DNA of 62,266 bases, filler included, from Rhabdomonas costata (lineage: Eukaryota), in assembly GCA_019059605.1 (NCBI GenBank). It is 29 parts of 29 records of this genome, joined end to end, with 100 filler letters (N's around TTAATTAATTAA, not from the genome) between each part and the next. Parts side by side here need not be neighbours in the genome. Positions count along the whole stretch, not along the records: positions 45,170 to 47,218 come from JAHMHO010006084.1; 28 more parts are not named here. One strand, written 5' to 3'. Made by a program: the position numbers and the translations under genes. Each line of letters opens with the position of its first letter. Within the stretch, counting starts at the first letter, position 1. This document shows, piece after piece, positions 25,164 to 56,127 of the stretch. Below the pieces are notes generated by a model. The model did not search any database, had not been told where the DNA came from, and worked only from the letters and a program-made list of their open reading frames with translations.

Positions 25164-27258
25164 CTGCGTTGAAGACCATGAAACGCAGACAGAACATAGT
25201 TGATGGGAAAGAGGGTGCATACGCAAAGCCCGTAGAGGACTGACAGAGGGAGGCTCCAACGCGATAGTCCACGAAATGGTTATGGTGCAAAACAGGTGCC
25301 GATGTGAGGAACCTCTGAGCGTGCAGAAGAACCCTGGCTGCTCAACAACATTAAATGAAGGGCATTCGTCATAAGTAACCACAAACCACGAACGCAAAAG
25401 TGGCAAAGTGCAAGAACTGGCCAAGTTGTGTGTGGAGTCCCTTGCCATTGGATAGACCCCTGCCTCCAATAAATCACCATCAAAGCAAAAAAAATTTTAA
25501 TCCCCTATTTGGATTTTGGATTTGGATTTTTCTTGTGAATTTCTGCCTCATGCCAAGTTTTCCCGAATTTCTGGCGAATATGCAAACAGATAAACCCGCG
25601 AGAAAGGCAGTTACAATGGCGCCCAACCGCTCGCTTTTTGGAGACGAATTGCAGAGATGATGAAGCCACTCCCTGGGGGACACCCACACCTAAGCTGAGC
25701 AGAGTTTCCAGCCCACCACTCAACANNNNNNNNNNNNNNNNNNNNNNNNNNNNNNNNNNNNNNNNNNNNTTAATTAATTAANNNNNNNNNNNNNNNNNNN
25801 NNNNNNNNNNNNNNNNNNNNNNNNNTTCAGTATATATTAAAATAGAGCGGAATTGTTTACGTCCAAGCGGGTTTGTGAAAGTGGTCTGTTGAATGTAGTA
25901 AGAAAAAGGAGTAAGAAAAAGGTTTGATCGAGGCATTGATTAGGCGTTCGAGTATGCGGAGGCTGAACATGCTCCTAATGTTCTCCCTCCTGTTGTTTTG
26001 TCTCAACAAATCAATGGCATAGTTAAAGTACATGGCAAATTTGTGGAATGATTTTAATAAGGTCGAGATCGAAATTTGAATTTTAATCCTTGAATTTTAA
26101 TCGGCAGGCCAAGCAGTTAGTAAATGGTATAGAGAACGATGCCACCAGCGATCAAAGAGAGACAGAAAGCAGAAACAAGGCCATCAAAACACATCAAAGA
26201 ATGAAAGAGGTGGGGCCAATGTAGCAAGGGGGATGCACTTTGGAGAGGCGGGGGGAACAGCTGGGAGCTCTGAACGACATCCTGCCAAAAAGCACCGGAA
26301 ACAGTGACAAAATTTACAGCTGGTGGAATGACAGTCCAGAGCCTCAAGGAGACGCACACCCGCACCGCACTGACATCTTCGGTGCCTCAGGTATTCCAGG
26401 TGCGGCCACTCCCTCGCGATTTCCTGCCTGAGTAGTGTTAGTCTGTGTGTGTGGGGCAGTGAATATCTCAGCACTCTTTTACGAGCACCACGCGAGAGGT
26501 GTGGACAAAGGGTGGGTGTGGAGGATGCATTGATAAATCAACCATCCCCATTCCGTCTCTTTCTTCGGACAAAACAAACATGAACCATCAAAAAAAGAAA
26601 GCAATGGGCACCCGTGGCAATCACTGAAGCCACAGCGAGAAGGAGAGAGGCCCCCTTTTGAGGAGGCGTTCTTCTTCCACGAGCCTCTGCAATTCCACGG
26701 CATTCACTGGGGGAGCATACTGTACAAGCAGGGATAGATAGAGAATAAAATACAAACCCAACCCGCACGGGTCGGGGATGGGGGTGTCGTGCACACAAGT
26801 TGAGATGGGGGTAACTTCGCTTGACAAACAGACGTCATACAATCACATCATACATACAACGAGTACGCTCAATGAGGGTGCATGTGCTACTGCATCCATG
26901 AGATGGGAACACAACTTTACCCTTCGTCAAGTTCTTCCTCAATGTGTACGTGTAGCAGGTGGTGGGTTTGAGTGTGGGTGTGGGTGTGGTGTCCGCGAGG
27001 AAAGCGTACAAATACGGCTTGTGAGGTCGCGACTTTCACTACTGCTCTTAAAATGTAGAGAGGGGCCAATCCAGTCACAGCAATAAAGCGGACACAAAAG
27101 GCCACAGCAGGCTCTGACCTCCGCGCCCGCGGTCTCTGATGCACAGATTTCCCCCCCAGTGAAGCCCAGACGCGCTGCAAAAAGAAAACGGAACCAATTT
27201 GGAAAAAGGAAGTGCCGGCCAGACCTGCACCTTCACAGCACAATGCACAGTGAAGAAG

Positions 27259-27443
27259 GGCGTTGAGAGTGAGGGAGGTGGTGGCTGCCACGGAGGAAGC
27301 GACGCAGGTGAGGATCCAAGAGGCTGCTCGGGCAACCGAGCTGCAGCGCGCCGGGGAGGAGGCGCAGAGCCTGATGCGCGCTAAGGACGCCTTCTTTGCG
27401 GTGATGTCGCACGAGATGCGCACCCCGCTTTCCGCCGTTCTGG
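27259..27443 (+). CDS. Histidine kinase HisKA (H-box) exon
   Basis: Coiled coil then [22 protein letters not shown] followed by a GT donor; 5' acceptor unclear. Confidence 0.75.
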
Positions 27444-27680
27444 GTGTGCCCTTTGATCTGTTGACAAATCGGGAAGCTTTTTCCTCTCTCGCAAGGTGAT
27501 TTTTATTCACGGTGGGCATCTGGCTCGGTGACCCCGGAGGTCCTGGTTGAAGCCCCGACAGGCATTCTCCTTTAAGTTTCCAGTCTTCGGGGGGCATATG
27601 CCCCAGACTGTGTACTGGGACTGTTCTGCTCGAAGCGGACGGTTGTCCCTGCAGTTGACGCGTGAACATGCGACCGTGTG

Positions 27681-27867
27681 GGTATTCCATCTCTCTCGAG
27701 CCTGTATGCCTCCCGTGGATCCGGAAAAAACCGTGAGGGAGCTGTATGGGTGCGAACTCAGATATTCGTTGGGTAGCGCCACTGCAATCTGCGAAATTGG
27801 ATTGCCGTGCCTCACGGTTTTTTCCGGATCCACGGGAGGCATACAGGCTCGAGAGAGATGGAATACC
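27681..27867. repeat. 58-bp perfect inverted repeat with 71-nt loop
   Basis: 27681-27738 is the reverse complement of 27810-27867. Confidence 0.9.
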
Positions 27868-28099
27868 AAAACAACCNNNNNNNNNNNNNNNNNNNNNNNN
27901 NNNNNNNNNNNNNNNNNNNNTTAATTAATTAANNNNNNNNNNNNNNNNNNNNNNNNNNNNNNNNNNNNNNNNNNNNGGGGGTGGGTTTCGGTTGTTGTGT
28001 TTGGAGACAGCAGCAGAAGCAGAAGCAGCAGTACCGCCGCAGTTCCGGCATTATTGGTGGCGTGGGTTGCCACGGGTGGTGCAGTCTCCGCTAGGAGTC

Positions 28100-36581: not shown

Positions 36582-38619
36582 GATTTCGCCGCCACCTCCA
36601 CGGCTCTGCTGGCCCGCGCTGGGATTTGCTCCCTGTGGAGTGCTGTGGATGATGGTCAAGAAGAAGAGGCATTGGAAAGAATCAGATGTATTGCCGGGGA
36701 AGACGCAGAGAGTGATCTCTTTGATGAAACTGACCTGAATGACTTCGATGCCACGAAATTGAACTACCTTGCGCCTTTTGGAGAAGTTCCGGAACCCGTG
36801 ATGCCTCAAGCGGACCTGGGATACAAGTTCACGTACCCTCTTTTCCGAGATGGATGTGATCCAGGCGTGGAAATGCGCATCACTCGAATTATTTGGATTG
36901 CATCGAAGGAACATCATGAGCTTTATTTGCGTCGCATAACTAACCTGATGCGGAGCAAGAGAATCCTGGTCGAAAAAGTTTATGGTACGGAACAGTTCAG
37001 GCAGAGGCTGAAGACGCGTGAGCCTCCAGTGAACTTCGTGATTTCCAGCTTGTTTGTCACTCACGAAGACCACGCGGTGAGCGCCGATGGCCACGTCGAG
37101 GACAGTGGGCATAAGGCCATTGCCGAAGCCAGTCGCCTTTTGAAAGAAGACAAGACTCTGTCCTTTCGCATTGTTTGCGCACCGATGACTGCCATCGGCT
37201 CCCGAGAGCGGTCCACCTTGTACTCCGAAGGGGCTCACATGGTTTCCTTTAACCTCCATGCTCTGGAGCTTGATGAAGTGATGGAGAAGCTTGCGTTCGT
37301 GCAGCGCTATGGCAACCAGCTTCTAAACATCGTCCGACTGCGGACGACGGAGCTTAAAAAAATTCAGTTTGAAAACGGTGTCCGGACGCGCGAGACAGCG
37401 CTCGAGCAGCCCCCGGGCGATCATGGCGGGGAACACGCTTGGAAAGCCACGGTGCTGGTGAAGAAGATTTTGGAAACAGGAGTGGGTGTTAACTACGCAC
37501 CTCGCGCATGGGCTCCTTTACATCACGCTGCCAAGAAAAAGAAGTTCAACACGGAGTTGGTTCGCGCTTTGCTCAGTGCACAGGGGGTTGATGTCGAGGT
37601 CCGAAGCCGATACACCTTTGGAAATGTGCCGAAAGGCTCGACCCCATTAATGGTTGCCGTGGAGTACGGAAATGAGAAAGCCGTGGATCTTCTTCTCGAA
37701 TTTGGAGCTTCACCAGTCACCCCCGCTGACTTGTCAGCGGACGGCACTGTTGTTTCTTGTGACCTGCCCGCTGCCCAGGCACAGGAGACCACTCGCGCAG
37801 ACGAGGAGCCCTCACCCAGCCCCCCCGTTGGAGAAGCGGGCACTTTGAAAGGAAGGGTTGCATCTTCGGGAATGACACCAATTGAGCTGGCTTTTCGGAA
37901 GAAAAACGATGCATCCGACCAGGACAAACAGAAGTTCCGCTGTATCTACCAGAAGCTGCAGAAGGCTGCGAACGGAGAGGGTGTGTCCGCGAAAGCTTCT
38001 GTCCCCCGCGACCATCCGGTGTTGACTCACCCTCTCCTGACTGTGTTATGGATATCAACCTCGCCGAGATTGTCGCCTGATACGTATGAGGACCGGAGAT
38101 CTCTGGAAGAAGTGGGCTCCCTCTGCATCCGCACTATGACGATTCCCGAGTGGGCCGAGCAGGCCAATGAGGAAGGAGCAGGTCCTGAGCTTGCGAAAAA
38201 GCTCACGAAATACTTGGAGACTCAGTTTGCGGCCTACACTCATGATTTGGACGAACTCGATCGAGACACGCATGAAGTTGTGGAGCCTCTTGCATGGCTG
38301 CAGGTTGTCGTGTTTGAGCTTTTGAATGTGAAACACTTGGAACTTTGGGAGCAATGTGTGAAGATGCTTCACGAGAGGATACTCGAACGCCGAGGGGCGA
38401 AGGGTGCGCCCTGGCTGAAGTTCATCACGTATGCTAAGCTTGGTGGGTTTGTGGTGACTACGGATGTGAAGGAGAAGGTCTCCTCCGATTTCTATTTTCA
38501 CGATCAAAAGAAGAATTCTGTTCTGTTCTGTACCCGAGTTCGGGTGTCATTGGAGAAAGTCCCTGAAACGCAAACCGAGCTGCCGAAATCCAAGTACCCT
38601 TTGATGCACGTTATCACAA
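36582..38619 (+). CDS. Long uninterrupted ORF (>670 aa) with ankyrin repeats flanked by alpha/beta domains; open at the 3' contig end
   Basis: APLHHAA..ELVRALL..GVDVE and GSTPLMVAVEYGNEKAVDLLLEFGA are ankyrin repeats; no stop over 2 kb. Confidence 0.85.
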
Positions 38620-38926: not shown

Positions 38927-40204
38927 ATGAGCTCCGCCTCGCCCGCGGCCGCGGCCGCACCGTCGCAGCGGTATCGTCGGCTGGAAGCCGTGGGGGAGGG
39001 TGTCTACGGGGTGGTCTACAAGGCCCAGGACACTGTCGCTGGGACCATCGTGGCCGTGAAGAAAGTATGCCTTGTCCCCTTAATGCCTTAGCACATTTTC
39101 CGGCCTGTGCAGGGAAACGCCCATGTATACGGACCTCTGCAAGAGTCCGTCTTCTGTCGGTCTGTACTCGTGCGGATGCCTCGGCTGGGATGCCTCGCGA
39201 ACTCCATTGGGTCGTCTCTGTGCCTTCGAATCTAGCCAAATTTTTGACCTGTTCTTTGCCCTTCCCCCCTTCTGGGTCCCTCTGAACGAGGCCGGAGCTC
39301 GATTGGTTGGACCTTACTTGGAACCGAAGATGGGATGGATGTCACGCCTACTGTGGTAACTGAGCTGCATCTCGTGGCACGACAGTTCTTCGAGCCATGC
39401 TTCTCCTTGATAAAGTGATCTGCTGCTGCCTTCCTCCTTTCTGGCTTCTGGTCGCATCTCTGTACATAATTCTTATCTTTAGAGCTCCGTACCCCACCCC
39501 CCGCCCACCACTACCACCTACCACCGATGTTCTGTTGCTTGGCGAAATGCCCTACTTCCCACGTTTGCGGTGTGTTCGTCCGTTCATGTGATGATGGTGC
39601 TGGTGAGTGCCATCCGGCGTGGGTGGGTCTGTGCAGATCTTACTGGACACGGACGAAGGGGTCCCGGCGACCGCCCTTCGTGAGATCAGCATTCTCACGG
39701 AGCTCGACCACCCGTATCGCAATCCCATCCCCCCTACTTTTGAAAATGCAATGCAATTTGGGTGGCACCAATGCGTTTGCGATTCGCAGGGATCGTCCTG
39801 TCTTCAGGGTTTTCACGGCCTTGTCCTTGGTCATAATATGCTTCGGCATTTCAATGGAGGGCTGTATCGGTTTCTATGCCCATACACTGCTTGACTTCTA
39901 ACATCATATATGCATGGCAGGGCTTAAGAGAAGCGTCAATGGAGTTTGTGTCATACCTCTCGACAGTTGTGTGAAGTGCCCTGTGCGTGGGCGATGCAGG
40001 GGAGTAGTCAAGCTGCTGGACGTAGACTTTGTTCGAGGACGGCTGTTTGTGGTGATGGAATGGATGGAGATGGATCTCAAGCGGGTGCTGACCCGGCAGC
40101 AGGCGCTGCCCCCCAACGTGGTGCGCGACTACCTCCGGCAGCTTCTGGAGGGGCTGTGGTTCTGTCACACCCATGGCATCATCCACCGCGACATCAAGCC
40201 CCAG
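38927..40204 (+). CDS. Cyclin-dependent kinase (cdc2-related), 5' part (exons 38927-39064, 39637-39713, 40000-40204)
   Basis: GEGVYGVV, VAVKK, EGVPATALREIS, HRDIKPQ; in-phase introns. Confidence 0.92.
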
Positions 40205-41213
40205 GTCGGCCACCGGGTTGGTTTGGTTCAGTTCCATTGGACTTTTTCTATAGGTACAGCTCTTGTCGTACACATTTGTTACAGCTCAAACGTTCCCTAG
40301 CCGGCCCTGACACCCAAACCCTGAGACCCAACCCTCAAACCCTGACCCTCATCTCCCCCCCGCTGAGCCATAACCCTGATGCTCCAGAGCACCTCACACC
40401 TGGGGGCACAAATACCAACCACTGTAAGGTGGGACCTGTGGTGTACCTGATAGTGGGCTTGGTATGCGATCAGGGGTCATCATCATTGAACTATCCATGA
40501 CAACCTGACTTGCTGAAAGGACGGTTGCTTTCTATGTCGAGCTCTTCACTTTAAAGTGTACTCTTTGAAGCGAGTTTCACATTGTACTGGACTCTATAGT
40601 GGAAAACGCATTGTAAAAATCCAGCTCTTTTCGTTTTTCTTTTCTTTTCTTTTCTTTTTCCTCACAACACTCGGTGCTTTCTGACGCGACATGATATTGT
40701 CCGCGGTTTCGAAATCTGAGGTTTTGTGGTTTCTGTTCGGCATTGCCTTCCAACCGTCCCCAACCCCACNNNNNNNNNNNNNNNNNNNNNNNNNNNNNNN
40801 NNNNNNNNNNNNNTTAATTAATTAANNNNNNNNNNNNNNNNNNNNNNNNNNNNNNNNNNNNNNNNNNNNGTGGTGGTGTGAGAGAGTTTTTGGGGTTGGA
40901 AAGCGGGAGCTCCTGCAAGAGACTGGAACGCGGAAGATCCGGGGCGGAAGGCGTTTCTTTGCTTTTATCTTTATTGTTGGGTGGGCTTTGCTCGTGGTAC
41001 CGGATGATTAGCATTTTCCACTCCGTTGTTTGACGCTCTATGAACACACCAAGGATATGACTCTGTTTCAGCCTGGTTTTTGGTTTTTGTTGTTTGGGTG
41101 CGGTGTTGCCTGGTTCGCGGTGAGCGTCCGGACGGGGAACTGAACGCAGTTTGAGGTTGTCAATTTACGGGTTCATGTTTGCTGTTTTCGCCCTATGCCT
41201 TCCTTGGGTTTAG

Positions 41214-42102
41214 TTGTGATCGCCAAGGCCAAGGGCTGCGAGGTTTGGGACTGCGAGGGCAAAAAGTACTACGACTTTCTGAGTGCCTACTCGGCTGTTA
41301 ACCAGGTCAGCACTCTTTAGTGGAGAATCTATCGGGCTTAATTAGGTTTTCGGGCTTTTTCTCTGGTTCTTGCCCATAAGGCCCAGGAACTTTTAGTGGT
41401 TTATCCATCGTCGCTGGTTCATGATCCTCTAATGGTTGCGGGAATCTGTTTTTCGTTGGCACAGGGTCATTGCCACCCCAAAATTATTGATGCTCTGAAG
41501 AAGCAGGCAGACATTTGCACCCTGACCAGTCGTGCTTTCTACAACAACGTTCTGGGGGAGTTCGAAGAGTACATCACCAAGTTGCTGGGCTACGACAAGG
41601 TGGTTATGCCTACTCTGGTCAGAGCAGTTTAGATGGGTTCTTTGTCTTCAAACGGACCATGCGTTTGTTTTACACTTCAGGTTCTCCCTATGAACACCGG
41701 AGCGGAAGCGTGTGAGTCCGCTTTCAAGCTTGCTCGTCGATGGGGGTACGATGTCAAGAAAGTGCCAAAAGATCAGGTGCTACTGCGCTCTCGTCATGCC
41801 TTTGTTTTTTTTGAAGGTATGGTGTGTGCATGCTCGTATGTTGAGTTGTGCTCGCGCAGGCCCGCATTGTGGTGGCGGAGAACAACTTTCACGGAAGGAC
41901 GATTGCCATGATCTCCCTTTCGAACGACCCCGATAGCTACGGTGGGTACGGCCCCCTGGTGCAAGGCATTGACCGCGTTCCATATGACAACATCGAGGCC
42001 ATGGAGAAGGCCACTCAGGACCCTAACGTTGTGGCCGTGATGATTGAGCCCATCCAAGGGGAAGCTGGGGTGTACGTTCCGTCCCCTGGATACCTTCAGA
42101 AG
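41214..42102 (+). CDS. OAT: Ornithine aminotransferase (internal exons 41214-41305, 41465-41599, 41681-41776, 41860-42102)
   Basis: [52 protein letters not shown]. Confidence 0.95.
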
Positions 42103-43020
42103 GTCGGTGTGATTACAGCGGTTTTTCATTGCACACATGGGTTCACATGGGACAAAGGAAGTTTTTCCGTAACGCCTGGGCTTTTGACGACCAAGAGACT
42201 AAAAAAGCTCAATAATAATTCCCCCATGAATTTCAGTCTTCTATGTCCACGCGAATACACGAATAATACTAACAAGTGGTAAATCGAGTTGGAGTGAACA
42301 AAAAAAACAACAGATAAATGGCATTTCGGTGGATCTTATGACATTTGAGCGGGCGCACGCGGCTTCAACCAGTTACTATTTTTTTTCGGGGGGGGGGGGT
42401 GTCTGAGAAATTCTTGGAGCAAGATAACATTAAACAGCTGCTGAAAGGCAAACTCACTGGCTAGAAAATAGCGACTGAGCTGCACCCCAGGGCTTTGCCC
42501 TCGAAGCCTTTGGTATTCAGTGGTTGCCAATAAAATAAATAAAATAAATTGGGCAATTCGCTCTGGATTGTCGAGCTTTTTGACGATTTTGTGTCCAGGA
42601 AGCTGCGGTTACGTTTGTTGAATGGCCCCCTTTTTATGGTGCCGCTGTAAAATTTAACAGCAATGCTGTAAAAATTCAAAAAATGTAAAAAAAAAATTGT
42701 TGCGGTCGGTGTTGTTGCAGTCAAAAATGTAAAAGTTTTATAGCGGTGCTATAAGAATTTTAATGCGACGGTATAACATTTTTCCAAAATTTCAAAAAAT
42801 GTCAAAGTCTCTTGCACCACCATAAAAATTATGAGATTTTTTCCGAGCCCGTATAATAGGGGCGCTGAAATTTTAATTACTAAAATAAATTTGAAAACTT
42901 TTATAGCGAAGAGTTTATTTNNNNNNNNNNNNNNNNNNNNNNNNNNNNNNNNNNNNNNNNNNNNTTAATTAATTAANNNNNNNNNNNNNNNNNNNNNNNN
43001 NNNNNNNNNNNNNNNNNNNN

Positions 43021-44890: not shown

Positions 44891-45170
44891 CTGACATTGA
44901 GATAAGCAAACGGCTCCCCAAACGGCTCAATGAAACAGACGTATCCAAAAAATCCACAAACGCGAAAGAATGATACGGTAACCCAGTTATAGAATACAGC
45001 AGAAAAAGGAAAAAAAAATAGAAACAAAAATGGGAAGTCTGTCCGCTGATAGAAACATTGCGTATGAGTNNNNNNNNNNNNNNNNNNNNNNNNNNNNNNN
45101 NNNNNNNNNNNNNTTAATTAATTAANNNNNNNNNNNNNNNNNNNNNNNNNNNNNNNNNNNNNNNNNNNNT

Positions 45171-45559
45171 GTGTTGGTGACATCTTGCATTGACCTGTTT
45201 TCAACAGAGAGGCATCATCAGGTACAGCGGTATTTTACAGTGGATGAGTGGGATACAGAGGCATTGGGACATAATGCTTTTGATTTTGTGTGGAGTCCAG
45301 ATGTGTGCCTGTACCCAACCCGCCGTGGAGCGTAATCGCTCACGTGCTGGCAAAAGCATGTCGGGAGAAATCTCGGCTTATGCTGGTGACTCCAGAGTTG
45401 CCAGATGCACCGTGGTACTCGACTCTGAATGAGCTGACGGTGCGAAGCCAGCGTTGGAATGGAAGGTTGTACCTTGATTTCACAGGACGTTCGAGGTCAA
45501 AGCCCAGCTGGGCTACGCTCTTTTATTATGCGGTGGGAAGATATGTGGAAGGAGTGTAG
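45171..45559 (+). pseudogene. Dam-like (DIRS-type) N6-adenine methyltransferase domain with one frameshift near 45313
   Basis: IDLFST..YFT..ALGHNAFDFVW..LY[fs]NPPWSVIAHVLAKACREKSRLMLVTPELPDAPWYSTL. Confidence 0.8.
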
Positions 45560-45929
45560 TCAGTGGGTTTCCACACAGGTGGGTTAGGTGGGTTTTCCAC
45601 AAGTTGGTAAGTGGTGTAGACGTAGTTAGGACGATCCATGGACTTTTGTCTTTGTCTTTGTGTTTGCATTCTTTGGCAAAATAGGCAAAATATCCAGAGA
45701 GGAGTACCATTTACAGACTCCAGATTTAGGTTTTGGTTGGAAGGTGGTGGAATGTGAGGAGGGAGTGGAACATCTCCCCCTCGGGTGCCAGCTCCAAATT
45801 TCTCCAGTGATCTCCACAGTTACCGACCCTGAGTACCATTCCACCAGTGTTGGAGGATCATGCCATGGTGACGTATGTGATGGAGGTGGTTGAACAAATT
45901 GAGGGATCGGTTCTGATTTCATAACGGGA

Positions 45930-47200
45930 TAATATCGAGTGGTTGTTAAATGAGGTTCTGAGGAGAAAGCTTGTTTCCAGAGAGTTGTTGTACCAACTTC
46001 AAGAGACGAGGCAGTGGGTGAAGTACACCCATCGATCCCCGAATCCCCCTCCACATCCACCAGTTGCAGATACGTTGGGAGAGATTTTGCGACAGATGAA
46101 GATGAGTAGTGGACCTTTAGTGGACCTCCAAGATGAGGTAATGCACAGCAAGGGACGGAAACCACAATGGCAGTGGTGGAAAGAGCCACGCTATCGACTT
46201 CCGCAGAGAGTGCAGTTCACAAGGCGAATGGAGAAGGACTCCAATTGAGTTGTTTTGTGCAAATTGTCGGTAAATTAGGTACCATGCCGATTAAGTTGTT
46301 TTTGGGAGTGATTCAGACGGCAATTCCAGTGGTACTTGGCTATCAGTTTTTGACGAGGCTACAGCCACAGATTGACTGGAAGCGTAGGTGTGTCAATGTA
46401 TGGAGAGGCGGAAGGATTTACGACATTCAGGCGCTACCAGCAGTGGATTATTTCAGAATGTTGTTCCAAACAACAGGGATGATGGAATCCGAGCCGTAGG
46501 AAGTTGTTCCAGAGCTTCCACATATCTCTCAAGTGCGGAAATGGTCTGTGCTGTGCCCCCATGGTTCCAGATAGCAGAGTAGCAGGGGGGGATGGGAGCG
46601 ACACCCCAATGGATGTCTGGATGTTGTTTGGTTGCAGAAAGAAGCGAGCCTATTGTGGTGACCGTTACAAGGGGTGCGGAGTCTCTTCCAGAGTTGATTC
46701 CAGATGGTGCTATTTCCTCATTGGAGGTGGAAGAGGTCACTCCGACTAAGCAGGACCAGCGAGCCATAGCTAGGGATTAGGAGCCTAAGTGGGATGTCAA
46801 AATGAAGTTGCGAGATTCGACGTGGACCACAGCATTTGTGGCCTCACTTGTGCGGTGTTACCAACACCTCCAGAAATCGAGAAGTTAAACCAAGAATTTG
46901 CGCACATCTTTCCAGCGTCAGTTTCCGGAGGGTTACACACTTCGAGGAGTACGGACCACAGGATTGATTTGAATCCTGACAGCAAGCCAGCCCAGAGGCT
47001 GTACAGAATGTCCCCGGCGGAAGATGAAGAATTTCTGAAGCAACTGAAGAGTCTCCAGGAACTTGGTTTTATAGAGCCAGCAACCTCGCCTTACTGCGCA
47101 GGTGTGCTGTTCGTTCCAAAGTACAACGGTAAGTTGCGGTTGTGCGTGGATTACAGACCGTTGAATGCTATCACTGTTACAGATGCGTATCATTCAACGG
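45930..47200 (+). mobile_element. Ty3/gypsy pol remnant: aspartic protease + start of reverse transcriptase
   Basis: ANG..VVLGYQFL..PQIDW (protease C-terminal half); EFAHIFP..DHRIDL..YRMSPAE..GFIEPATSPY..VLFVPKYNGKLRLCVDYRPLNAIT (gypsy RT). Confidence 0.92.
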
Positions 47201-49285
47201 TCTGTAATCCACCCACACNNNNNNNNNNNNNNNNNNNNNNNNNNNNNNNNNNNNNNNNNNNNTTAATTAATTAANNNNNNNNNNNNNNNNNNNNNNNNNN
47301 NNNNNNNNNNNNNNNNNNGTGTTGTTTTCTCTTGAGAGTACCTCACCTGCGTCTCTCTAGCTATACTCAGATGTTTACGCACTTCACGTTTTGTGTTTGG
47401 TTTTGGTCTCCCTGTTTTGACCCGGGGAAAGGAACTCCATTCCTCCATCCCCAGGAAATGAGGCATTTTCGATAGTTCCAAAGGCTGGTTGACGTATTGC
47501 GTATTGCGATGTGTGTGATGCGATAGATAGTGAATTTCAAGTTGTTATGCGTTTATCATACATCATTTTTTCTACGAAAGGTGTTCACTGCCTCTCTCTC
47601 TCTTTCTTGCTCCTGCTTCCTCTAACTCTAATTTCCTTCGGAAACTTTTGTTTTCTCTCTGCAAGCACAAGAGAACAGCACAGAAAGCACGTCCATGGGA
47701 ATACAGAAGGCGTCAAGCCAGCGTTCAAAGTGACCAAGGTTTTCGCACATCGCAGACAACGAATTATGGCGGGCGGGCGGGCACCAAAAAAAAGGCAAAA
47801 ATAAACAATGTGCTGCAGAAAACATCAGACAATATATTGGGTGCTTGGGTTTTGGCACGTCCCGCAGGGTCCGGGGGGGGGATTCCAGAAATTCTTTCCG
47901 AAGGCACGGAAACTAGCAGATTATTGAAAAGCTCAGCGCCCTCATAACCTGGCAAACGAAGTACGCCCGCCGTGTACGCTGCTCTGGGGGGGGGGGGGGG
48001 GGTTGTCGAACCCCGGTTTGGGCCCCAATCCCACCCCTCTTTCCTCTGCTATGTCCACAGCTATGTCCGATGGCTAAGTAGGAAAAGACGACCCGTGGAC
48101 ATACGAAATCCGGACTCCCTTGTTTTGGGAAGACTGAGGCAATATGTTCCCTGGTCTCCAACTGGGGCATGCCCTGGATGCCTTGTTTGATTTTTTCGCG
48201 CGGGGGGCCTAGGGTGAAAGTGAAAAAAGGGAAGAAAAAACCCAACCCATTCCGCGCTTCCTGCAATTATAATTGAAACTCTCCAAAAATAAAACTCTTC
48301 AATGTTCAGAGGCTGCATTCCCTTAATGCTTCAGGATGGGAACGCCAGCAGAGAGCGGTGTGCGCGGTGTTCTCCATGCCTTCCATACCTGGCACCCCAC
48401 GGGGGAGGGGCGAGGGGGTTACGGGTTTTTATCTGGATGGTCGTGCCGCTATGACACGATACTTTGATATCTTTCCTTCTGACTGACGTATGACACAACG
48501 GATGCTTTACACAAACAGACTGTGAAAGAGGATGAGGGTGGGAGGTGAGAAGATAACCCTCAAAATGTGAACCCCCAGAGCCATTCGACATGGCGGTTCG
48601 GTTCCTTCCGCACGGAAGGAACACGCAGCCCATTTCGGATGGTGGCGGCCTTTCGTAAATGAATGCGTTGTGCATGGGAAAGTCTCTCAGAATTTCGCGC
48701 TTCCCTTGCTTTCAGCGGGTTGGCTCGTTTCCTTTGCAAAGTGACTCAAAATTGTCGTCTTGCTCTCCTTCGGAGTAATATCGGATTCCCTTTCTTCCCT
48801 CTGCTCGCAGGACAAGCGTGCCCGATTTTTTAACAGCTCTCCGTGCGTAGCCTCTGGTCCTTACCCTCTCTCTCTTTGCTTTGCTATCTAAAATCCCCTG
48901 TGTGGCTTGCTCTGGGAATCTAGGCATGCTTGTCGCACATCTTATCATCGCACTCTGTGCCGTTGCTGAGGCTGCCTGGAGGCTGAGCTGTTGGGCTTGT
49001 GCCCGGCAAACCCAGAAAGCGGATCCCCCTGGATCCCAAAACGAGGCCACCTTCGGACGGCCCTCGAATGCAACCCCCGCGTCCTTCGGCCTCTCTGTGG
49101 CGACCACCCCGCGGATCTCACTGAGGGGCCTGGAGAGCGGGATCGATCCCAGCCACGGCAGCAGTGAAGCCCACGGAAGTCCCCCCCGCACCACATTGTC
49201 TCGGCTGGTTCCTTGGGCTTGCCGTGCTCTTGGGTTCCCCTCTAGCCGGGTTCCGCTCAGCCTTCTGGTGCATCTGCTTGTGTGC

Positions 49286-49363
49286 GGGACCGTCTCCGTG
49301 TCTTACCTCTTCCCTTGCGAGGGGGCCGGCGCCAGGGAAGAGGTAAGACACGGAGACGGTCCC
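49286..49363. repeat. 30-bp perfect inverted repeat at contig end
   Basis: 49286-49315 is the reverse complement of 49334-49363. Confidence 0.9.
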
Positions 49364-49467
49364 ACCANNNNNNNNNNNNNNNNNNNNNNNNNNNNNNNNN
49401 NNNNNNNNNNNTTAATTAATTAANNNNNNNNNNNNNNNNNNNNNNNNNNNNNNNNNNNNNNNNNNNN

Positions 49468-53666: not shown

Positions 53667-53775
53667 NNNNNNNNNNNNNNNNNNNNNNNNNNNNNNNNNN
53701 NNNNNNNNNNTTAATTAATTAANNNNNNNNNNNNNNNNNNNNNNNNNNNNNNNNNNNNNNNNNNNNTGTGTGGTG

Positions 53776-53788
53776 TGGTAGCAGAGGA
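53776..53788 (+). promoter_or_regulatory. Candidate primer-binding site complementary to the initiator tRNA-Met 3' end
   Basis: TGGTAGCAGAGGA about 400 bp upstream of the gag ATG; lies next to a possibly primer-derived contig start. Confidence 0.5.
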
Positions 53789-54189
53789 ATAAGTCGAGAA
53801 AGCGCTGTGCCGCACGAGTAGGACAGGTCAGTATTGGAGTACCACGCATTACTTTGTGGCACGTGGTAACAGAGGAAGTGCACGACCAAATTTGGGCAGA
53901 GTGTGCAGTGAAGGAATCCAGTGACACGTGGTGCAGATTGAGCCCAGGGTGCACCAGGAAAAGATCCAATTTCGAGTTTCAGATCCGGGTCTTTGAGTGT
54001 GGTAGCAGCGAGGCCAGAAGGGCCTGTGTGGAATAACCATCTACATGGTGCGGGCAAGTTTCAGAGTTCGGCACCAGGCGACAGATTCCACAGAGTTCAG
54101 GGGACGGTTGATTTCAGAGAGGTCGAGTTCATCTCATTCCACCCACCTGAGTGGATGTCAGCCCAATTCCAGAGGTGTGTTCCGATTTG

Positions 54190-55622
54190 ATGTCAGGAAA
54201 TCCGCCACCTCCAAAGCCGAGCGCAGCCCCCGCACCACAGATGGAGCAGACTTTTCTAACCCAAATGGTATCCTTTTTCCAGAGCATGGAGCAGCAAGAG
54301 CGGGCCAATCACGATCTTACACAGGAGTTGCTGCGGAGAGTGGTGGCTGGACCCTCAGCGGAATGTTTACAAAATGGAGGATGTTAGCCAGCTTCCACAG
54401 TTCCAGAGGCGCTGGGAGCATTGCGGAAATTGCAGGAGAAAGACACAGAGTTACAGAAGTACGATGGGAACCCAGCTAATTTCCTACCGTGGCTTGTGTC
54501 GGTAGAAGAGCTGAAGGACTTTCGCAGACTTCCAGATCAAGTTGCGATCACTTATGCCACAGGCGCCTTGGGTGCACATTCCAGAGGAATTGTTGCGCCA
54601 GGTCAAGTCTTTACAGACTGGAAAGAGTCTGTAGAAACGTTGAAGAGGCGGCTGTGTGCACAGACGTGGGACTAAAACGTAGTGTGGAGGTTGGATCAAT
54701 TGAAGATGTCGGACGGGATTTCCAATTCTACCATAAGCAGTTTGTGAACGGGATGAATCTGTTGAAGTGGACGAAGTTTGATAACGAAACTCTTTTACAG
54801 TATCTGTTTTCCAGAGATTTGGAAGGGGAAATCCATGCCAAAGTGATGGCAAAGAATCCACGGACCTTTACAGAGGCAATGGATAAGGCCTGGGAGTATT
54901 TCAGAAAGCCAAGACAACCTCCACGGGTGATTGTGGCGGTTCCAGAGGGCAATGTTTAGAGAGGAATCGCGGCGTGGGGTGCGGCAATGGATTTAGATGC
55001 CACACGTTATGTGTACACTCCTTTCTCGTGGAGTACGGCCTTTCTAACCTCTACAGAGAGAAATGTCAGCGGTGCACCTTCCACAGTTTTCAGAGGTATG
55101 GTTAACGTAAGTGCGGTGCAGAGAAGTGCAAATTTGTTCGAAATGGCGACACAGCCAACGTTAGCTGCCACAGTTCCTGCGAGTTCTGTAATGTTTTCCG
55201 CCCCTCCACGGCCACAATTTAATGCGACGCGTACGCCTTCTCGAGAGAGGAGGGTGACTCCATCCAGAAGAATGTTGGCGTTCAGAGGTCGAGGATACGT
55301 GGGAAGAGGAGTCCGAGGTTACAGATCACCTTCACTCTTCACCCTTCACCGTCTAGAAGCGGTAAACTCAGACTTCCCTCGTTTCCCAGTAAGGTAAATG
55401 TCTCCCCGCCTCGACCACCAACCCCGACTTCCACAGATAGCAGGCAGCATTCACCTTTTCCGAGTTCAGGTTTGGAGAACGCGAAGCCGCATGTCCCTTC
55501 AAGAGTTTGTATGTATTGTGGAAGTAAGAGCCACTTTTATAGGGATTGTGAATTGGCTAAAACGGAGTTGGTTCATAGAAGTGTGCCGAAGTGGTCAGCT
55601 GGAGAATTTCAGAAGAGTGTAG
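54190..55622 (+). mobile_element. Degenerate Ty3/gypsy gag
   Basis: KYDGNPANFLPWL, NPRTFTEAM, MDLDA, zinc knuckle CMYCGSKSHFYRDC (55508-55549); several stops and frameshifts. Confidence 0.85.
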
Positions 55623-56127
55623 ATCAGCCAAACTAGAGGGGGCATGAGACAGGGCCGCTCCCGCCACACCAAAGAGGCCCACTTCGTCCACAGTCAGGAC
55701 GCGAGCCAGTTTTGTGCAGAGAGCTCCAGGCAAATTCCCGCTAAGAATTTTGCAGAGACCACCAGAGCCTGTGCTCAGATCAACCAGAGTTGATCAGGTT
55801 GAGCAGACCCCAACCCNNNNNNNNNNNNNNNNNNNNNNNNNNNNNNNNNNNNNNNNNNNNTTAATTAATTAANNNNNNNNNNNNNNNNNNNNNNNNNNNN
55901 NNNNNNNNNNNNNNNNTGAAACTCGTTGTCCTTGAAGGATCACTAACCCACCAATCACGGAAACCTTTGGCCAACCGGAGGCGAGGCGCTTCACGACCTA
56001 CAGCATCAAACGTCCATTAGCCTATCATTCACGTGCTCTTTCAAAGATACTACGAGGCCCCCGAAACGGAAGCCGAAGCGGCTCGTAAACAACTATCAAT
56101 GCATGTGTGGGCGGCCCGCGACCATAC

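Follow-up and report, generated by a model that had tools for sequence, protein, structure and literature searches.

Ty3/gypsy retrotransposons that encode a DAM derived from DIRS elements have been described as DAM-LTR elements by Fernandez-Moreno et al. (bioRxiv, May 2026, 10.64898/2026.05.21.726589), whose preprint names chlorophyte, chloro-ochrophyte, ichthyosporean, Pyropia and Euglena lineages. In DIRS1-like elements, pol is ordered RT-RNase H-MT and a tyrosine recombinase is encoded (PMC3266345). Gypsy elements carrying an adenine-methyltransferase-like domain being already in print according to that preprint, the fragment analysed here mainly adds one more host and one more clade.

The fragment belongs to a stretch of 62,266 nucleotides from Rhabdomonas costata (assembly GCA_019059605.1), hereafter the window, in which 29 contigs of about 2050 bp each are joined through N/TTAATTAATTAA linkers. 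A DAM-type domain, a protease (PR) remnant and the start of a reverse transcriptase (RT) are all confined to a single contig, and no second copy of these features was found among the window's 29 contigs. As in the DAM-LTR elements of the preprint, gypsy-type PR and RT sequences occur with a DAM of the eukaryotic transposable element type bearing an Asn-Pro-Pro-aromatic motif, and the relatives of the contig copy named P0095 and L011 below have their DAM within pol. The contig differs in that it is fragmentary and dead, in that its nearest relatives are metagenomic sequences, and in that its DAM precedes PR, an order absent from the preprint's main text, where the word "Protease" occurs 0 times. 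With DIRS1-like elements it shares a domain of the same "MT" superfamily, found there at the C-terminal end of pol (PMC3266345). DIRS elements, however, have neither protease nor DDE integrase, whereas the DAM of the contig neighbours a gypsy PR-RT, and no tyrosine recombinase was found on the contig.

DAM, protease and RT remnants on the contig

The features of the contig are listed in Table 1. The contig start falls inside the DAM domain, of which profile positions 34-156 out of 170 are covered and the N-terminal 30 or so are lost; nothing upstream of DAM is therefore visible. The first piece is 60% identical to the metagenomic protein P0001 over 48 aa (tblastn). The second is read in a different frame, and the catalytic Asn-Pro-Pro-aromatic motif, intact as NPPW, is reached only by reading through the single-base deletion, at a codon where the aligned relatives have an Ala (LYANPPW). 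The IDLF, AF..W and NPPW motifs reported by the initial annotation were thus all recovered in the two frames it implied (45171-45314 and 45317-45556).

Table 1 Features of the R. costata contig, in positions along the window
Feature	Position	Strand	Evidence
Contig, 2049 bp, from a fragmented assembly	45170..47218	.	Artificial linkers on both sides (N runs, linker boundaries)
DAM-type methyltransferase-like domain, first piece (CIDLF ... NAFDFVW ... VCLY)	45171..45314	+	ORF reading, profile, tblastn
Frame break just 5' of NPPW, two bases remaining of a codon (1-bp deletion)	45315..45316	+	Direct reading
DAM, second piece: NPPW (45317-45328), LMLVTPELPDAPWY, LYLD...KPSW, last residues ...AVGRYVEGV	45317..45556	+	Search, alignment, profile
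TAG stop, 8 residues past the conserved DAM end, where the ORFs of relatives also end	45557..45559	+	ORFs, alignment
Spacer (about 600 bp) without assignable homology	45560..46154	.	Pfam, tblastn, stop counts
Retropepsin remnant, C-terminal two thirds (...IPVVLGYQFLTRLQPQIDW...)	46155..46448	+	BLAST to P0095 and P0092
PR-RT linker region, third frame	46625..46819	+	tblastn with P0092 residues 61-115 and P0093 residues 66-100; ORF pieces
Pre-RT region, then the ~25 N-terminal residues of a Ty3/gypsy RT (…KLRLCVDYRPLNAITV…)	46819..47190	+	Similarity to P0091-P0093 and P0095
Terminal fold-back	47146..47212	.	22-bp perfect inverted arms, 47146-47167 and 47191-47212

Searched against 1.84 billion representatives, the 91-aa second piece retrieved 84 proteins with E-values of at most 1e-3 (best 5.6e-20), 14 of them at or below 1e-10, the best matches being short metagenomic ORFs with 47-58% identity. 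Read through with an X at the break, the domain has 54.7% identity to P0001 across 128 aa and scores 176 bits against a profile of its clade, a profile of 30 rows of which the contig's own 91-aa piece is one. No Pfam domain, PF05869 included, matched any of the six read-through frames or seven ORFs, apart from a chance-level FAF match; among 28 relatives scanned with Pfam, PF05869 was listed at E-values of at most 0.01 in 14 and exceeded the gathering score of 28.1 bits in 3 (P0063, P0077 and P0080). Searching the PDB by sequence with the DAM profile gave only a chance-level match to DUF4827 (E-value 0.015), and a word-index search, which is a weak search, found no longer protein resembling the DAM piece. 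By its similarity to these relatives and its catalytic motif, the domain belongs to the DAM type borne by eukaryotic transposable elements, the "MT" of DIRS, related to PF05869. Its assignment to a DIRS-type adenine-methyltransferase-like family, proposed initially, agrees with the 84 relatives.

Downstream, the PR remnant is 34% identical to residues 232-329 of P0095 (E-value 1e-15) and 63% identical to residues 1-59 of P0092. No frame holds an intact D[ST]G active site, a stop or frame change sitting just upstream of the remnant; in the BLAST alignment, the DSGA of P0095 aligns across the stop before 46137. The peptide LSTSAES was dropped as a candidate degenerate active site, since in that alignment the active site lies farther 5'. 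Between PR and RT the frame changes at least twice. The pre-RT region and RT start are 70% identical to P0091-P0093 (E-value 8e-49) and 62% to P0095, in all of which RVT_1 starts at the corresponding place and is accompanied by RT_RNaseH (with rve and SH3_Tf2-1 in addition in some), and the PR-RT ORF matches 73 relatives. Judged from the pre-RT region and the 25 or so RT residues present, the RT start is of gypsy type. RT goes no further on this contig: the last 30 or so bases are the reverse complement of its own RT sequence, and this fold-back is an artefact that truncates RT. The retropepsin remnant and gypsy RT start reported initially are present, while the gap before PR, first given as about 400 bp, measures about 600 bp from the DAM stop to the beginning of PR homology.

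The spacer yielded no Pfam match and no similarity to residues 1-231 of P0095. No LTR, PPT, PBS or target-site duplication was identified within it, and Rfam and tRNA scans of the window pointed to no primer-binding site. The + frame leading into PR contains 4 stops in the spacer, versus 8.5 ± 3.0 in shuffled sequences; the fewest stops over the six frames are 3, and 19% of the shuffles reach 3 or fewer in their lowest frame. A coding role for the spacer was rejected on these ordinary stop counts, as was a 196-aa minus-strand ORF (45629-46216) as a gene, this ORF being at chance level (P = 0.058; Atlas scores of at most 0.82). The spacer may correspond to the LTR/UTR of an upstream copy, to the decayed pre-PR region of a downstream copy, or to both.

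Position of DAM in related elements

The closest full-length relative of the PR-RT ORF is P0095, a 1763-aa metagenome protein from ENA. It carries PR at residues 209-316, RT at 540-699, then RNase H, integrase (IN) and SH3 (1285-1349), and finally, after a linker, a DAM at residues 1608-1763, that is at its very C-terminus. This DAM scores 193 bits with the profile of the contig's DAM clade and is 44% identical to the contig DAM. P0095 is thus similar to the contig in all three domains and differs from it in being intact and colinear, the contig DAM preceding PR. The metagenome locus L011, ordered RT-RH-IN-DAM, unites both halves on a single DNA molecule: P0091, the nearest relative of the contig RT, is matched at 59-75% identity by its RT, RNase H and IN N-terminus, and its DAM half, which follows them, is 58-61% identical to P0001-P0004, the nearest relatives of the contig DAM. 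L011 lacks the IN core and what follows it up to the middle of DAM, and in another relative, P0056, PR is joined to DAM; derivatives of this kind, rearranged or with deletions, are common in the P0091/P0001 family.

In a tree of 59 DAM sequences, the contig DAM groups with P0001, P0004 and P0006 (support 0.977) inside a clade of 17 sequences (support 0.974), these values being local supports computed by FastTree from some 130 aligned positions. The only member of known architecture in this clade is P0095, in which DAM follows IN, and the DIRS-linked DAMs fall elsewhere. The 28 Pfam-scanned relatives have integrase or SH3 ahead of DAM in 6 cases, RT/RNase H in 3 and PR in 1, with PR or RT behind DAM in no case; over all 90 DAM relatives, PR or RT was likewise never found downstream. 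In 73 of 81 relatives the ORF ends within 25 residues past DAM (8 residues in the contig copy), a count to which short contigs contribute many of the ORFs, so that some C-terminal ends may be contig ends and not stops. In the clade nearest to the contig copy, these comparisons suggest that DAM forms the C-terminal end of Pol, after the integrase. Chromoviruses carry a chromodomain at the C-terminal end of Pol, after the integrase.

Metagenome contigs were also scanned with a degenerate DNA pattern, giving 13 loci, 8 of which match the DAM profile. Leaving out L006 (12 bits), the remaining 7 are DIRS elements in three cases, a gypsy deletion derivative and an isolated remnant in one case each, and stand-alone ORFs of NPPF type in two, and none of these 7 has PR-RT downstream of DAM. 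The DIRS elements (L002, L004 and L014) are ordered RT-RH-DAM with a tyrosine recombinase downstream. Scans of viral and genome contigs with P0005, P0095, P0001 and P0091 returned only L001, which is spurious, and L015, a DAM-less gypsy contig in a bacterial MAG.

A Dam ahead of PR does occur in a distant gypsy lineage. P0131, a 1434-aa protein representing an ENA 90%-identity cluster of 36 members, encodes in one ORF a Pfam Dam (residues 150-246; 37.6 bits, above the 28.1 cut-off), PR (349-433), then RT, RNase H and IN. It has the Dam-PR-RT order that the initial annotation had inferred for the contig, and its RT start is 57% identical to that of the contig over 79 aa. Its Dam, by contrast, is of a distant type with an NAPF motif (hhalign probability 37% and 14% identity against the contig's DAM clade), is not matched by the profile of that clade and shares an open frame with PR, about 100 residues ahead of it. 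By analogy with P0131, a Dam position ahead of PR would be viable in gypsy elements.

Origin of the DAM-to-PR order

On the contig, DAM and gypsy pol parts of the same family lie on the same strand, in an order reverse to that of P0095 and L011 and separated by a stop and the 600-bp spacer. The reading we favour, with a probability of roughly 55%, is that the contig consists of two dead fragments of one Ty3/gypsy DAM-LTR family and holds the junction of two copies. This family would be represented by P0091, L011 and P0001 and more distantly by P0095, the Pol of its intact members running PR-RT-RNase H-integrase-SH3, followed by a long linker and a C-terminal DAM. The left part of the contig would then be the 3' end of one pol, made of DAM and its natural stop, and the right part, past some 600 bp, the 5' portion of another, made of PR-RT. 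The two could have met through nesting of one element into or beside the other, or in a tandem pair having lost LTR and gag by deletion; DAM would then not have lain between the gag and PR of one and the same element. This reading is favoured because the nearest relatives of both halves place DAM after the integrase, because the contig ORF stops where those of the 73 relatives end, because PR or RT follows DAM in no relative, because the spacer is too short to hold an LTR, a gag and a pre-PR region of 208 residues as in P0095, and because rearranged derivatives such as L011 and P0056 are common. Against it, the fragments share strand, family, closeness and a similar decay, as the parts of a single rearranged element would; the spacer holds none of the LTR, PPT, PBS or target-site duplication signals; and P0131 attests a gypsy lineage with Dam ahead of PR in one ORF.

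The same arrangement could come from an assembly or amplification chimera, a DAM 3' end and a PR-RT 5' part from different loci of one repeat family having been joined by a chimeric read or by the assembler, in which case the order would carry no information on the genomic arrangement. The uniform 2-kb size of the contigs indicates a very fragmented, low-quality assembly, and inverted duplications ending at most 10 bases from the 3' end are present in 4 of the 29 contigs, including this one with its 22-bp perfect arms; chimeric molecules therefore got into the assembly. These artefacts, however, are inverted joins at contig ends, whereas DAM-to-PR is a direct, same-strand, internal join, and the spacer showed no breakpoint signature in the form of a repeat or microhomology. 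We consider a chimera unlikely. About as unlikely to us is a genuine single element in which DAM closes an upstream ORF, either gag-DAM or an ORF of its own, right before PR-RT. P0131, the short spacing and equal decay of the two same-strand parts and the few stops in the frame leading into PR would fit it, but the P0131 Dam is only distantly related, the stop stands at the customary ORF end of the family, the closest relatives of both halves carry DAM after IN, 0 of 90 clade members have PR or RT behind DAM, the low stop count is not significant given the shuffles, and a word-index search, again a weak one, found no longer protein with the PR ORF. That the contig stems from an undescribed rearranged DAM-LTR member of the P0091/P0001 family, with a DAM ORF (gag-DAM, or DAM and then pol) ending directly upstream of PR-RT, seems improbable to us; were it true, DAM would have moved a second, independent time to the 5' side of pol, in parallel with P0131, and the domain would work in both polyprotein positions. 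Far less probable still is a DIRS element that ends in the DAM piece and lies beside an unrelated gypsy fragment. DIRS1-like pol (RT-RH-MT; PMC3266345) is where this type of domain first became known, and 3 of the 13 metagenome loci are DIRS elements, yet the contig DAM belongs to the integrase-linked clade of P0095 and L011, apart from the DIRS-linked DAMs, it is followed by no tyrosine-recombinase ORF, and the DIRS loci show a degenerate YPPT where it has NPPW.

Under the preferred junction of two copies, the initial proposal holds in so far as an LTR-retrotransposon family carries an adenine-methyltransferase-like domain, P0095 and L011 being gypsy pols with DAM, and the attribution of the domain to Ty3/gypsy and not to DIRS is upheld by the P0095 clade and the L011 link. 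The position between gag and protease is not supported: the DAM frame stops at the usual ORF end, P0095 and L011 carry DAM after the integrase, PR or RT follows it in 0 of 90 relatives, and there is no gag on the contig. The remark that MTase-protease-RT is no standard gypsy order agrees with the nearest relatives and has an exception in the distant P0131. What the comparison yields is a C-terminal DAM after the integrase in the nearest clade and a distant Dam ahead of the protease in P0131. If the position of DAM varies within pol, this bears on when it acts relative to proteolytic processing, and on whether it does so in the particle or at integration; a short and decayed contig, taken from an assembly in which chimeric ends are visible, cannot decide this question.

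Predicted fold and function

The contig copy does nothing now, and the view that it is pseudogenised stands: its DAM is frameshifted once, its PR lacks an intact active site, and the reading frame changes at least twice from PR to RT. The function of its DAM family is an inference, and the only published model is the unproven one of the preprint on DAM-LTR elements, in which DAM would deposit 6mA on the cDNA or on a new insertion, or would recruit the host AMT1, to keep chromatin permissive; in that preprint, DAMs of DIRS, DAM-LTR and adintovirus origin added no 6mA in dam- E. coli (10.64898/2026.05.21.726589). For P0001, the closest relative of the contig DAM, a structure model was obtained with a pLDDT of 90.0 and a pTM of 0.86. 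No Dam structure was among the PDB matches listed for this model. For P0001, a relative, and not for the broken contig copy, the predicted fold is that of a class I SAM-methyltransferase acting on adenine N6: Foldseek gave 15 PDB matches with E-values of at most 1e-3 and TM-scores of up to 0.61, the top ones being KsgA/Dim1 and the cap-specific adenosine N6-methyltransferase PCIF1.

The methyltransferase-like and retropepsin-RT pieces

The 29 contigs of the 62,266-base window (2042-2055 bp each, linked by N runs and the TTAATTAATTAA linker) represent more than one locus. The adenine-methyltransferase-like (DAM) domain and the fragment with retropepsin (PR) and reverse transcriptase (RT) lie together on one contig of 2049 bp. 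No second copy of it was found by BLASTN and TBLASTX in the other 28, and the DAM-PR junction was judged by comparison with relatives from outside the window.

Coordinates of the features (window positions unless residues are indicated)
Feature	Position	Description
Contig with DAM and PR-RT	45170-47218	
DAM, first piece	45171-45314	...VLVTSCIDLF...NAFDFVWSPDVCLY; one frame, from the contig's first base
DAM, frame break	45315-45316	next codon one base short
DAM, second piece	45317 to TAG	NPPWSVIAHVL...LMLVTPELPDAPWY...LYLDFTGRSRSKPSWATLFYYAVGRYVEGV
DAM, stop codon	45557-45559	TAG
Retropepsin remnant	46155-46448	34% identity to P0095 (E 1e-15), 63% to P0092
PR-RT linker	46625-46819	frame differs from that of PR remnant
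Pre-RT region and first ~25 RT residues	46819-47190	70% to P0091-P0093 (E about 1e-48), 62% to P0095
Fold-back arms	47146-47167 and 47191-47212	perfect, inverted, 22 bp each
Fold-back-ended contigs	1-2053, 25826-27876, 45170-47218, 47319-49367	
P0095 domains (residues)	209-316, 540-699, 1285-1349, 1608-1763	PR, RT, SH3, DAM; RNase H and integrase between RT and SH3
P0131 domains (residues)	150-246, 349-433	Pfam Dam, PR; then RT, RNase H, integrase
Decayed gag	54480-55633 (+)	contig 53767-55816; three frames
Ankyrin-repeat ORF	36582-38618 (+)	679 aa, open over whole contig
Protein kinase	39902-40297	host-like fragment
Class-III aminotransferase	41845-42279	host-like fragment

The second DAM piece (91 aa) gave 84 protein matches at E<=1e-3 in a search of 1.84 billion representatives, 14 of them at <=1e-10 and the best at 5.6e-20. 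When the break is bridged with an X, the domain shares 54.7% identity over 128 residues with its closest relative, protein P0001. It spans positions 34-156 of the 170-position clade profile, so the contig start removes only the first ~30 domain positions together with all upstream sequence. Pfam did not recognise the contig's copy; among the 28 relatives scanned, PF05869 (Dam) reached E<=0.01 in 14 and exceeded the gathering score in 3. A structure model of P0001 (pLDDT 90.0, pTM 0.86) matched class I SAM methyltransferases acting on adenine N6 (15 at E<=1e-3, TM up to 0.61), the best being KsgA/Dim1 and the cap-specific adenosine methyltransferase PCIF1. The term used in the initial annotation, 'Dam-like N6-adenine methyltransferase domain', is therefore apt for fold and motif. 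Methyltransferase activity of the whole DAM family is unproven; dam- E. coli expressing DAM showed no added 6mA, according to the text of a preprint (10.64898/2026.05.21.726589).

Downstream, three pieces were placed by tblastn with relatives. In the alignment with P0095, the active-site triplet of its protease falls across a stop just before 46137, and no intact triplet was found in any frame of the contig. The features first noticed on this contig are real, and the domain assignment was right. The gap between DAM and PR, put at 400 bp, is about 600 bp, counted from the DAM stop codon to where PR similarity starts. This spacer yielded no homolog by tblastn with relatives and no Pfam match, and its stop-codon counts are ordinary. 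A 196-aa minus-strand ORF within it is at chance level.

Position of the DAM domain in related elements

The PR-RT ORF search returned 73 proteins, of which P0095 (1763 aa) is the closest full-length one. Its C-terminal end is a DAM of the contig DAM's clade (193 bits). The contig halves are tied to one family by the metagenome locus L011, which carries counterparts of both on one DNA molecule. Its RT, RNase H (RH) and integrase (IN) N-terminus share 59-75% identity with P0091, to which the contig RT is most similar; past an internal deletion comes a DAM half with 58-61% identity to P0001-P0004, which the contig DAM resembles most. A DAM tree was built from 59 domains, picked by coverage from 99 profile hits; L010 and L011, which are partial, and P0131, which does not match the profile, were omitted. 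The contig copy grouped with P0001, P0004 and P0006 (support 0.977) in a 17-member clade (support 0.974), in which P0095 alone has a known architecture. Outside this clade lie the DAMs that occur with DIRS-type RT/RNase H.

Before the DAM, Pfam detected integrase or SH3 in 6 of the 28 scanned relatives, DIRS-type RT/RNase H in 3 and protease in 1. The ORF ends <=25 residues past the DAM in 73 of the 81 relatives with the domain's C-terminal end, some ORFs being cut by contig ends; the stop of the contig copy lies 8 residues past it. Using BLASTP with P0095 and P0131, no PR- or RT-like segment was found after the DAM in any of 90 DAM-clade proteins. The gag-DAM-PR architecture proposed in the initial annotation is not supported for the contig's family.

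The element type is most likely a gypsy DAM-LTR and not DIRS. The standard order in DIRS1 pol is given as RT-RNase H-MT (PMC3266345), and in the DIRS loci L002, L004 and L014 a tyrosine recombinase comes after RT-RH-DAM, and YPPT stands where the contig has NPPW. The kind is already described: DAM in non-DIRS LTR elements ('DAM-LTRs') was first reported in the above preprint (May 2026), whose text counts 10,030 DAM proteins in eukaryotes, roughly half of them linked to retrotransposons, and infers at least 4 DIRS to Ty3/gypsy transfers. DAM is proposed there to mark cDNA or to recruit AMT1, so that insertions are kept in 6mA-permissive chromatin. Full-text literature searches retrieved no other description. 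The word 'protease' does not occur in the main text of the preprint, and where DAM lies with respect to PR in its lineages may be given only in its figures.

Derivatives with deletions occur commonly among the relatives. One is L011 (1401 bp), an internally deleted gypsy DAM-LTR whose RT, RNase H and integrase zinc-finger region lead straight into the second half of DAM, without integrase core, SH3, linker and first DAM half. P0056, a 361-aa ORF matching the DAM piece, joins an intact-looking retropepsin (DSGAT, 25-108) to a DAM (ANPPW) ~90 residues on, with no RT between them, and is probably another such derivative. Stand-alone ORFs in L012 (194-1042, minus strand; AT-rich) and L007 (3-329, plus strand) encode a DAM-like domain, YANPPF...LVTPTWTDAPWY, on contigs without retroelement genes and may be virus-type DAMs. 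L015 (JANYER010000361.1), a contig of 4 kb assigned to a bacterial (Granulicella) MAG, carries a eukaryote-type gypsy pol from PR through SH3, 38% identical to P0095 and without DAM; probably, eukaryotic DNA has contaminated the bin.

Origin of the DAM-PR junction

By sequence similarity, both contig halves belong to one gypsy family with the order PR-RT-RH-IN-DAM, which the contig reverses, DAM coming first. Most likely, and most economically, two decayed copies meet on the contig: one element would have inserted into a second one or next to it, or a tandem pair would later have undergone a deletion. A clean tandem pair is ruled out, since the spacer is too short to accommodate an LTR, gag and a ~200-residue pre-PR region as in P0095. 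A serious alternative is that the join is an artefact. The contig's final ~30 bases repeat, in reverse complement, the RT sequence just before them, and 4 of the 29 contigs, this one included, end in inverted duplications whose perfect arms measure 22-58 bp, <=10 bases from the 3' end; such fold-backs are a recurrent artefact of assembly or library. Chimeric molecules therefore entered the assembly; however, the chimeric joins seen are inverted and terminal, whereas the DAM-PR join is direct and internal.

Owing to protein P0131, another match of the PR-RT ORF, the reading of the contig as a single element with DAM before PR retains roughly one chance in six. Exactly this order exists in a distant gypsy lineage with a different DAM: P0131 (1434 aa; ENA metagenome; 90%-identity cluster of 36 members) is a gypsy polyprotein in one ORF, with Dam (37.6 bits, above the gathering score; motif NAPF) between the N-terminus and PR. 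However, this Dam is only remotely related to the contig clade (hhalign probability 37%, 14% identity), so P0131 is not evidence for the contig's family. From a decayed 2-kb contig of a chimera-prone assembly, the gag-DAM-PR architecture cannot be established. The P0131 architecture, whose Dam-before-PR order is not mentioned in the available text of the preprint, is a more promising lead than the contig's junction.

Other features in the window

The decayed retrotransposon gag matches Ty3_capsid weakly, below the cut-off (E 0.0036), and has a CCHC knuckle (CMYCGSKSHFYRDC) in translation; neither at the nucleotide level nor by TBLASTX does it resemble the contig with DAM and PR-RT. The ankyrin-repeat ORF (Pfam Ank, E 8e-11) is a host gene fragment, and host-like kinase and aminotransferase fragments were also detected.
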